Positions 61,216-62,011 of a stretch of 64,000 bases of DNA are shown here, piece by piece; the stretch's first letter is position 1; the number at the start of each line of letters is the position of its first letter. The stretch comes from Escherichia coli (lineage in GTDB: Bacteria > Pseudomonadota > Gammaproteobacteria > Enterobacterales > Enterobacteriaceae), in assembly GCF_050920415.1 (NCBI RefSeq), contig NZ_CP169309.1. One strand, written 5' to 3'. The translations under genes and the position numbers were made by a program. The notes beneath the pieces were generated by a model. The model was not told the DNA's origin. It worked only from the letters and a program-made list of their open reading frames with translations, and made no database searches.

Positions 61216-61587
61216 TTACTTAAGAACGAGTCCGTTTAAGGCATCAAGGATTTTGGAAACATAACTTCCAAAAATGTAGGCGCAAAATGCGAACACGAAA
61301 CTGACAACGACCGCAGATGCCTTGATGGTGATTTTTGCTGAGCTAATGCTTGTCTCAATACCTGACAGACGAGAATCTACAGATTTTATATCTGACTTTA
61401 CTTCAGCGAGATCGCGCTTGATGTATTCAACATCAGACTCTAGCTTTGCAACTCTAGCCTCAAGCATGTTACCTCCGCCGTTTCCTCCACCATGCCGTGA
61501 GTATGCATCATCAGTGGAATAGTGTCCAATTGGGCGAGATATGTTTTGATTTGGACGAAGCTGAGCAACCTTGTTATCTAAACTCAT
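61216..61587 (-). CDS. Unknown protein (123 aa; possibly 83 aa from an internal Met): Gly-rich N-terminus, coiled-coil, single C-terminal TM helix; second gene of the rexAB-slot cassette
   Basis: ORF overlaps upstream ORF by 14 nt; alternative start MLEARVAKLE preceded by GGAGGT; TM segment ASAVVVSFVFAFCAYIFGSYV. Confidence 0.55.
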   Translation of the reverse strand: MSLDNKVAQLRPNQNISRPIGHYSTDDAYSRHGGGNGGGNMLEARVAKLESDVEYIKRDLAEVKSDIKSVDSRLSGIETSISSAKITIKASAVVVSFVFAFCAYIFGSYVSKILDALNGLVLK

Positions 61588-62011
61588 CGCGAACTGATCC
61601 TGTTATCTTCACGTCAAAAAACGAACTTTTTACATCAATTACTTCGCCTTTATCAGGATTAACCAGTGATGCTCTAACTTCGAATATCCCAGGCTTGATA
61701 ATTTTCACCCTTGGGAAGTTAATTCTCATAGAAGTTGATACGATGGTTTCTCCATCGTTGGCTTCTGCTACCGTAAAAAACTTATGGTTGGAGTACAGTT
61801 TTGTGTCAATTGGTATCGGTATTTCTTGAGCATTGAAAACCTCAATGCCTATGGAATATTTTTTTGTAGCCTTAAGGCCGATAAAAAAAGCGCCAAATGA
61901 TAGATCCACTTCATGGGAGTCTTTATCCATTTCATAGATAAGAACTGGAGTTACTGGGTTGCCTTCATCCATCGCAATCGGAATGATATAAGAAATACGT
62001 TCTTTAATCAT
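61574..62011 (-). CDS. Unknown soluble protein (145 aa); first gene of the rexAB-slot cassette, 8 nt downstream of cI
   Basis: ORF on the cI strand; no recognised motif. Confidence 0.55.
   Translation of the reverse strand: MIKERISYIIPIAMDEGNPVTPVLIYEMDKDSHEVDLSFGAFFIGLKATKKYSIGIEVFNAQEIPIPIDTKLYSNHKFFTVAEANDGETIVSTSMRINFPRVKIIKPGIFEVRASLVNPDKGEVIDVKSSFFDVKITGSVRDEFR

Follow-up and report, generated by a model that had tools for sequence, protein, structure and literature searches.

What takes the place of rexA-rexB in a prophage of the lambda immunity type that does not carry these genes, and does it serve the same end? This question is raised by the 64,000-nucleotide (nt) stretch of Escherichia coli DNA analyzed here (called the window; all coordinates without another label are positions in it), in which the slot occupied by rexA-rexB in lambda holds a cassette of two overlapping genes, both on the minus strand and here named A-B. 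An earlier note on this DNA had described the cassette as unrecognised and proposed it as a candidate phage-exclusion module. We find the observation confirmed in all material points and the interpretation partly supported: with a probability of roughly 0.4, the cassette is an accessory operon that is expressed in the lysogen and excludes other phages, resembling RexA/RexB in function without being related to them. It is the layout of the operon, the folds of the two proteins, the conserved context of their genes and the modularity of the family that lead us to an exclusion module.

The cI-Timm slot and its cargo

The cassette lies immediately downstream of the cI gene (Table 1), the product of which is named "LexA family protein" in the annotation of identical E. 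coli records and differs from lambda CI at two residues. Compared with the lambda operators, furthermore, OL1-3 (60965-61025) are identical and OR1-3 differ by one base, located in OR1; a promoter scan placed a pR-like site at 62780-62808 and a pL-like site at 60991-60963. When a 2.1-kb query from OL to cro was compared with lambda by megablast, two aligned pieces covered 61% of the query, and these flanks (OL-Timm and cI-cro) were 96.3% identical to lambda J02459 35567-38246. The central 39%, which is exactly the cassette, had no lambda counterpart, and lambda has rexA-rexB there. The earlier description of cI and both operator sets as near-lambda thus holds, on the open reading frame (ORF) call, the operators as read and the identity of the flanks, and so does the assignment of the cassette to the rexA-rexB slot, since only the rexAB interval is replaced between conserved flanks.

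The layout of the two genes is also as had been described. The ATG of A, the 145-residue ORF, follows the cI stop after 7 intergenic nt, and the ATG of B lies inside the 3' end of A, giving an overlap of 14 nt. Both ORFs are co-oriented with cI, and a terminator scan of the slot found no minus-strand terminator between cI and a hairpin corresponding to lambda Timm, which is the sole minus-strand terminator-like site in the slot. This hairpin has a folding energy of -15.5 kcal/mol (z = -3.5 versus shuffled sequences), and the stretch matches the element annotated as Timm in HK542, HK244, HK544 and mEp234 by 91-97%. The hairpin with a T-run announced in the earlier note is therefore present after B, but its distance from the B stop is 5-8 nt, varying with how the stem is drawn. 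We infer that A-B is transcribed together with cI from pRM (and pRE), pRM being the presumed promoter of cI-A-B in the lysogen.

In order to see what else this slot can hold, we compared positions 60331-63033 with complete E. coli genomes and found at least nine types of cargo between cI and Timm in prophages of the imm-lambda type, the A-B pair included. Prophages with the same flanks carry rexA/rexB, a P63C-domain protein, a KilA-N protein, an NYN protein plus a hypothetical protein, a PIN protein, DUF1828 plus hypothetical proteins, HicA/DUF1902 or DUF3024, and several of the nine types are uncharacterised. Isolated imm-lambda phages have in the same place gp48/gp49 (HK97), hicAB (mEp234 and HK106), pairs of unknown function (HK544, HK542 and HK244), a GspM-like protein (mEp332) or an NYN protein (ev099), and none of these eight phages has the A-B cassette. 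The cassette swapping expected in the earlier note was therefore seen, namely as the same flanks with different cargo, and a published account likewise treats the repressor-N interval as a mosaic hotspot, with RexAB and BstA in it (PMC8585504).

The cassette region is 100% identical in E. coli NCCP 13717 and 99.9% identical in enteropathogenic E. coli (EPEC) O127:H6 E2348/69, and the whole 1-kb stretch occurs in 13 of 5426 complete E. coli genomes, with most of it in two more. Both genes are named "hypothetical protein" in those records, with "hemolysin XhlA family protein" in one case. Among isolated phages, the pair was present in 8 of 50,697 records. Outside E. coli, megablast found the cassette with ~78% identity in the Salmonella P22-like phages epsilon34, g341c and NM-3. 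In epsilon34, A corresponds to gene 45 and B to gene 44, which stand between a different repressor gene (gene 46), immediately upstream of them, and OL/PL; the counterparts in g341c are genes 40/39. As early as 2008, epsilon34 genes 45/44 were called "like rexA and rexB" by position, with no database matches (PMC2629481). The pair is hence unrecognised in the sense of having no name in Pfam, NCBIfam, PHROGs or PADLOC, but not in the sense of being new to the literature; searches with the epsilon34 gene tags or the accessions of the A and B proteins found no later paper. The similarity to epsilon34 covers A and the first half of B, with the same place behind a repressor and upstream of OL, while repressor and host are different and gene 44, at 103 residues, has a shorter coiled-coil/membrane end. 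The epsilon34 match (4585-5223 of locus L001 in our collection) also continues beyond the cassette, at ~74% identity, into the part of the repressor gene that encodes the C-terminal peptidase half (window 62019-62427), and the cassette and the 3' half of a repressor gene may have moved together.

Two protein families and their pairing

Protein A was confidently predicted to fold into an eight-stranded immunoglobulin (Ig)-like beta-sandwich (AlphaFold2, 21-sequence alignment; mean predicted local distance difference test score (pLDDT) of 88 and predicted template modelling score of 0.82). It belongs to PHROG 5893 (E = 8.5e-65), the function of which is unknown, and had no match in Pfam, NCBIfam, PADLOC or PDB sequences; the Foldseek matches were all small and uncharacterised, from Enterobacterales, Firmicutes or phages of these groups. 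As A has neither a signal peptide nor a hydrophobic segment (Kyte-Doolittle 19-residue maximum of 0.81), it is presumably cytoplasmic. Its relatives amounted to 20 clusters at 90% identity in a word search and to 19 matches among 1.84 billion representatives in a search with a hidden Markov model (HMM), the long ones being Ig-repeat proteins, and the family is small and fast-evolving. A type II antitoxin with a DNA-binding domain was considered for A and rejected, the protein being an all-beta sandwich with no helix-turn-helix (HTH) or ribbon-helix-helix.

Protein B belongs to PHROG 6136 (E = 3.6e-46), also of unknown function. As the earlier note had it, the N-terminal part of B is rich in Gly (HGGGNGGG at residues 32-39) and a single transmembrane helix stands at the C-terminal end. 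The layout is constant in the family: an N-terminal tail (N-tail) of ~20-40 residues, a Gly motif typically of the form (H/Y)GGGNGGG(D/N)x, a near-invariant Met, a coiled coil, one C-terminal hydrophobic helix (found in every member) and a short tail. After the Met, the most conserved stretch of the family is (L/Q)ExRVAKLE(S/A)DVxYI(K/R)RD, followed by more heptad-like sequence; in B of the window, the most conserved stretch of the coiled coil is RVAKLESDVEYIKRD. We estimate that ~90 residues of B are cytoplasmic and ~13 follow the membrane helix, and both proteins lack a signal peptide, a lipobox and any large periplasmic portion. In comparison with solved structures, only generic coiled coils were found for B, among them Lpp and other trimeric coiled coils, which matched weakly. 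The relatives of B comprise 73 close clusters and, in a profile search, 1011 clusters, all from Enterobacterales, consisting of proteins of 100-160 residues that are mostly unnamed or called "hemolysin XhlA". The reading frames of A and B remain intact in relatives down to ~30% identity, across many genera. No known toxin family was matched by B in PADLOC, NCBIfam or Pfam, and membership of the type II toxin-antitoxin systems was therefore rejected for the pair, with no DNA-binding domain in A and no such toxin match in B. In the profile and structure searches that the earlier note had proposed, then, A and B were without informative relatives in PADLOC, NCBIfam and PDB, as was A in Foldseek, and the one departure was a marginal Pfam match of B.

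This match is to XhlA (PF10779; residues 42-88, i-Evalue of 0.002, score of 18.7), and the name given to B by NCBI points to the same family. No precomputed Pfam domain was present among the B relatives listed, and hhalign of our B alignment against SPP1 gp24.1, an XhlA homologue, gave a weak probability of 42% over 27 columns. XhlA of Bacillus PBSX and gp24.1 are nonetheless similar to B in build, being small proteins in which a cytoplasmic coiled coil at the N-terminal end precedes a single transmembrane helix at the C-terminal end; residues 41-123 of B correspond to their build of ~80-90 residues. Unlike XhlA, B has an extra N-tail of 40 residues with the Gly motif, is encoded behind a repressor and has no XhlB-type holin or endolysin adjacent to it; near-identical prophages have their holin, endolysin and spanin genes in the late region, ~8 kb from B. 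The "hemolysin" in the name presumably comes from an unrelated Xenorhabdus protein, and no function is to be read from it. XhlA and gp24.1 are harmless alone and kill together with a canonical holin (PMC6316719; for XhlA also PMC5589764), and the papers found on XhlA concern Bacillus lysis only.

The genomic context of the family was examined in 86 loci, namely six looked-up contigs (for three distant relatives of B and three of A) and 80 loci from a scan of viral contigs with the B motif. In all six looked-up contigs, a repressor gene is followed by an A-like gene (131-150 residues) and then by an overlapping B-like gene (109-137 residues), and the repressors are of different kinds: HTH_3 with Peptidase_S24, a short HTH_3 protein of the RacR type beside YdaS/YdaT, and a lambda-type repressor with Cro and N. 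Over the 86 loci, B nearly always comes after an overlapping gene of ~130-160 residues. Iterative HMM searches assigned 37 of the 43 unique upstream ORFs of at least 100 residues to the A family, and the other six encode an unrelated Zn-ribbon protein of ~110-130 residues with two CxxC pairs (PHROG 4293, function unknown), which had no match in PADLOC. One further gene upstream, 43 of 48 unique ORFs fell into a single BLAST cluster with known repressors, corresponding to ~90% of the pairs. Loci L062-L064 are different: their Zn-ribbon/B pair does not follow a repressor gene but belongs to a moron cluster with gtr-like glycosyltransferases, just before the tape-measure gene. In L063 (287-6872), the cluster has two of these glycosyltransferases and a PHROG 791 protein. 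From the counts of upstream ORFs and this moron context, we consider B to be the constant component, its partner to be interchangeable and the module to be accessory cargo; the rarity of the pair in isolated phages and E. coli genomes, together with the moron cluster, likewise speaks for its accessory character. The family is found in prophages of Escherichia, Salmonella, Klebsiella, Enterobacter, Yersinia, Serratia and related genera; the stop of A overlapping the start of B is a conserved arrangement that points to translational coupling. An A-B module may be defined by PHROG 5893 and PHROG 6136 in overlapping genes, with the Gly motif, the RVAKLE coiled coil and a C-terminal transmembrane helix in B, and the pair of the window has all of these.

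Within this constant frame, the parts of the module appear to be exchanged. Clustering at 45% identity gave 19 types of A, which correspond almost one to one with the types of the B N-tail, and the A type of the window occurs with four different coiled-coil/transmembrane ends of B. Indeed, Mantel tests related A to the N-tail (r = 0.37, p = 0.0005) but not to the C-terminal part of B (r = 0.05, p = 0.16). The clearest case of shuffling is epsilon34 gene 44, the counterpart of the N-terminal half of B, with the same tail and Gly motif and a different end. The N-tail frame is open in 24 unrelated tail types, and the ratio of nonsynonymous to synonymous substitution rates (dN/dS) in the N-tail is 0.36-0.49 in divergent pairs, corresponding to weak purifying selection. 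A hydrophobic-x-hydrophobic...Pro motif was present in 13 of the 24 tail types, compared with 6.2 in shuffles, though this pattern was picked post hoc and carries little weight. These patterns fit a protein A that would work with the tail of B, and recombination that would occur at the conserved DNA of the Gly motif and coiled coil.

The internal start of B and other features of the region

B may furthermore be made in two forms. The earlier note had given the second ORF as 123 residues long, or 83 from an internal start with a GGAGGT site, and both readings are borne out at the sequence level: an in-frame ATG (Met41, 61465-61467) is preceded by GGAGGT (61471-61476) and opens an 83-residue form. 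A Met at this position is conserved in nearly all members of the B family, and 28 of 38 unique contexts have GGAGG within the preceding 24 nt. On average, the longest Shine-Dalgarno match spans 5.9 nt at the internal Met, versus 3.8 nt at the annotated start of B and 4.2 nt at the start of A, and reaches at least 5 nt at the internal Met in 76% of cases. Two database entries (P0073 and P0093) start there. The DNA encoding the GGGNGGG(D/N) motif (61465-61491 and the B genes of L003-L093) is at the same time a strong Shine-Dalgarno-like sequence, often GGAGGTGAT, suitably spaced from the near-invariant ATG; GGAGGTGAT is complementary to the 3' end of 16S rRNA. Codon selection for a ribosome site was not detected in the Gly motif, where GGA makes up 0.29 of the Gly codons versus 0.31 elsewhere (Fisher p = 0.57), and the frequent GGAGG is thus explained by the Gly run itself, because the choice of Gly codons is the same as elsewhere. 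The start at Met41 is plausible, and both products of B may be made.

A weak sigma-70-like site, TGGACA-17-CATACT (9/12), is located at 61500-61528 on the minus strand, within the coding sequence of the N-tail and upstream of the internal start. Its position recalls that of lambda pLit inside rexA; six such sites were found versus 4.1 expected, which is no more frequent than in shuffles. No RNA family was detected in 59000-64000 by an Rfam scan.

To the left of N, on the strand opposite to the cassette, a 179-residue membrane ORF (59770-60309, plus strand) is a SieB-type superinfection exclusion gene (PHROG 1301, E = 3.9e-94), and the prophage therefore has a known exclusion gene besides the A-B cassette. 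The region left of N (~53000-60300) differs in the window from both near-identical strains: N is truncated in E2348/69, and NCCP 13717 carries an Nmad5-family gene together with other ORFs. Even prophages that share this immunity region hence have mosaic early-left arms. According to the annotation of NCCP 13717, which was matched to the window from 60335 rightwards only, the prophage apparently lies beside dsdC at a KplE1/CPS-53-type site, with a torI-like excisionase gene nearby.

Table 1. Coordinates of the cassette, its parts and the surrounding features (window positions unless a locus is named)
Feature	Position	Strand	Basis or remark
cI repressor gene, lambda immunity type, 237 aa	62019..62732	-	ORF call; cassette immediately downstream on the same strand
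ORF A, 145 aa, soluble Ig-like beta-sandwich, PHROG 5893, equivalent to epsilon34 gene 45	61574..62011	-	
ORF B, 123 aa, tail-anchored membrane protein, PHROG 6136, NCBI name "hemolysin XhlA"	61216..61587	-	
B residues 1-32, variable, probably disordered N-tail	61492..61587	-	Tail type follows upstream A type; pLDDT < 50 in fused model
B residues 33-40, conserved Gly-rich motif GGGNGGGN	61468..61491	-	DNA contains GGAGGT 61471-61476, 3 nt before Met41 ATG
B residues 41-88, conserved coiled coil MLEARVAKLESDVEYIKRD	61324..61467	-	Conservation; predicted as one long helix
B residues 92-110, single C-terminal transmembrane helix	61258..61314	-	Kyte-Doolittle 19-residue mean 2.11
OR3-OR2-OR1 with pRM (leftward) and pR (rightward)	62743..62806	.	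Operators read from sequence; same layout annotated in imm-lambda phage HK544
OL1-OL3 and pL, left boundary of slot	60963..61025	-	OL1-3 at 60965-61025 read from sequence; equivalents annotated in HK544
Intrinsic terminator, lambda Timm, ending the cI-A-B unit	61181..61210	-	Hairpin 61189-61210, then UUUCUUU
Zn-ribbon partner genes, loci L037-L042, L061-L064 and L076	e.g. L063 3020-3418		

Exclusion of other phages or another role

If the cassette does exclude phages, A or its Zn-ribbon alternative would be the part for specificity or sensing and would act on B through the matching N-tail. Upon a phage cue, the coiled coil and membrane helix of B might assemble and damage or depolarise the inner membrane; alternatively, B might trigger holin-dependent lysis too early. 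In either case the infected cell would yield no progeny, which amounts to abortive infection, and the Met41 product, lacking the N-tail, might modulate full-length B. Membrane proteins with two starts have precedents in S107/S105 of lambda and SieB/Esc of P22.

RexA/RexB, which excludes T4 rII and other phages by depolarising the membrane, is the closest parallel in arrangement: A-B takes up the same interval, from the cI stop to Timm, in the orientation of cI, with the gene for the cytoplasmic protein first and that for the membrane protein second, and presumably is cotranscribed with cI. In sequence, in contrast, there is no similarity, either in PADLOC profiles, which include RexAB, or in megablast, which aligns the flanks only; A has 145 residues against 279 in RexA, and B combines one C-terminal transmembrane helix with a long coiled coil, versus four transmembrane helices in the 144-residue RexB. 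The earlier statement that neither protein resembles RexA or RexB accordingly stands, as does that of a soluble protein paired with a single-pass membrane protein. SieB/Esc of P22 and lambda is comparable in that a membrane protein of the prophage aborts superinfecting phages, and SieB also has a shorter in-frame product, Esc, by which it is modulated; unlike A-B, SieB is encoded by one gene, which stands left of N on the other strand, and the protein has no sequence similarity to B. Several accessory genes just downstream of a repressor, namely those for BstA, Nun, Stk, HicAB and HK97 gp48/49, are expressed in the lysogen from there, and several have proven exclusion functions (PMC8585504). 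BstA is, however, a single KilA-N-type protein that acts at phage replication sites, and none of the hotspot proteins is related to A or B. The slot, the swapping and the architecture support the earlier interpretation, and the hotspot itself had already been published (PMC8585504).

Several points weigh against an exclusion function. We found no link of A or B to defence in databases or the literature, and in PADLOC-DB v2.0.0 (systems to 2023) A had no match and B only coiled-coil noise of CorA-like/LmuB proteins; since none of A, B and the Zn-ribbon partner matched anything there significantly, a known defence system of that database was rejected as an identity of the module. Position alone is no proof, as the slot also holds toxin-antitoxin pairs and non-defence genes. 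A has no catalytic or nucleotide-binding features and hence gives no hint of the cue that it would sense. Docking of A on B was not obtained when the fused protein A-(GS)15-B was modelled by AlphaFold2 with a paired 26-row alignment, the N-tail of B having a pLDDT below 50. The co-variation of A with the N-tail is, moreover, confounded by adjacency, and linkage alone could yield the pattern; the conserved DNA of the Gly motif and coiled coil could simply be a recombination site. Lastly, the homology of B to XhlA is weak on the profile matches given above.

Exclusion might also be exerted at the entry of the phage, with B in the inner membrane blocking DNA injection or the use of an entry factor, A serving as a cytoplasmic stabiliser or regulator, and the infected cell surviving. 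Small membrane proteins that block entry are known, namely P22 SieA, HK97 gp15 and T4 Imm, and B is indeed a small membrane protein of a prophage in a slot that is presumably expressed in the lysogen; nothing in A, furthermore, suggests an enzyme or a death effector. With ~90 residues in the cytoplasm and ~13 beyond the helix, nonetheless, B would offer little periplasmic surface to a tail or tape-measure protein, and an interchangeable cytoplasmic partner is more easily explained by intracellular sensing. We consider a block at entry improbable.

The two small overlapping genes, the soluble one first, would equally suit a pair acting for the prophage itself, like a toxin-antitoxin system or in lysis control, in which B would be a membrane toxin or holin helper checked by A and would affect prophage stability, the timing of lysis or the outcome of lysis versus lysogeny. 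HicAB pairs are indeed found in this slot, in mEp234 and HK106 as well as in other prophages, the architecture of B is like that of XhlA and other holin partners, and the possible second start recalls holin/antiholin pairs. Against lysis control, however, transcription from pRM would stop upon induction, which is the wrong time for lysis, and relatives of the prophage have a complete lambda-type holin-endolysin-spanin set elsewhere; against a toxin-antitoxin pair, A is without the DNA-binding domain typical of type II antitoxins. This account is an unlikely one, and it also overlaps with an exclusion function, because many toxin-antitoxin pairs of prophages are defence systems.

Little probability is likewise given to a lysogenic conversion unrelated to phages, in which the pair would act in envelope physiology, stress tolerance or host interaction in the manner of lambda bor, lom or the gtr genes. 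The rapid turnover of types and the swapping of partners are typical of conflict systems, and the lack of a signal peptide, lipobox or large periplasmic part in A and B does not favour an envelope role. Such a role would nonetheless be in keeping with the Zn-ribbon/B pair beside gtr-like O-antigen glycosyltransferase morons in L062-L064 and with the origin of the window from an E2348/69-like lineage of enteropathogenic E. coli; bstA, in the same slot, was also first tied to virulence phenotypes (PMC8585504). That the ORFs are decaying remnants without function, or that only the 83-residue form of B is made, is very improbable: the Shine-Dalgarno sequences are weak at the annotated starts of A and B and strong at Met41, where two database entries begin, but both frames are intact down to ~30% identity, A is predicted to fold confidently, the N-tail frame is open in 24 tail types with a dN/dS of 0.36-0.49 and the A/B overlap is conserved.

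We therefore return to the exclusion of other phages by a lysogen-expressed A-B operon. A more far-reaching form of it would make A-B the founder of a large and so far unrecognised family of abortive-infection systems linked to repressor genes in Enterobacterales (at least 1000 B clusters), in which interchangeable sensors dock on the N-tail of a constant effector resembling a holin helper, the coiled coil is released to breach the membrane or to fire the holin of the invader early, and the tail-less isoform sets the threshold or confers self-immunity; this scheme is conceivable, yet we hold it to be doubtful. If defensive, A-B would be a new family within a known kind, that of two-gene prophage modules for abortive infection or exclusion with a membrane effector. 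With the hotspot and the idea already published, it is no surprise in kind; A-B is, nonetheless, a well-defined, widespread and uncharacterised candidate.

RexAB is among the oldest known abortive-infection systems, and its mechanism is still poorly understood (PMC8585504). If the exclusion function of A-B is true, the pair would provide a much simpler system for learning how a signal in the cytoplasm reaches the membrane to stop a phage, and the natural shuffling of partner, tail and membrane end would provide ready-made chimeras for dissecting specificity. Once such a function were proven, many labels of "hemolysin XhlA" or "hypothetical" could be corrected, and a system that current tools for finding defence genes miss would be added. 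Even if not defensive, A-B would still be a conserved membrane module, presumably expressed in the lysogen, in pathogens such as EPEC E2348/69.

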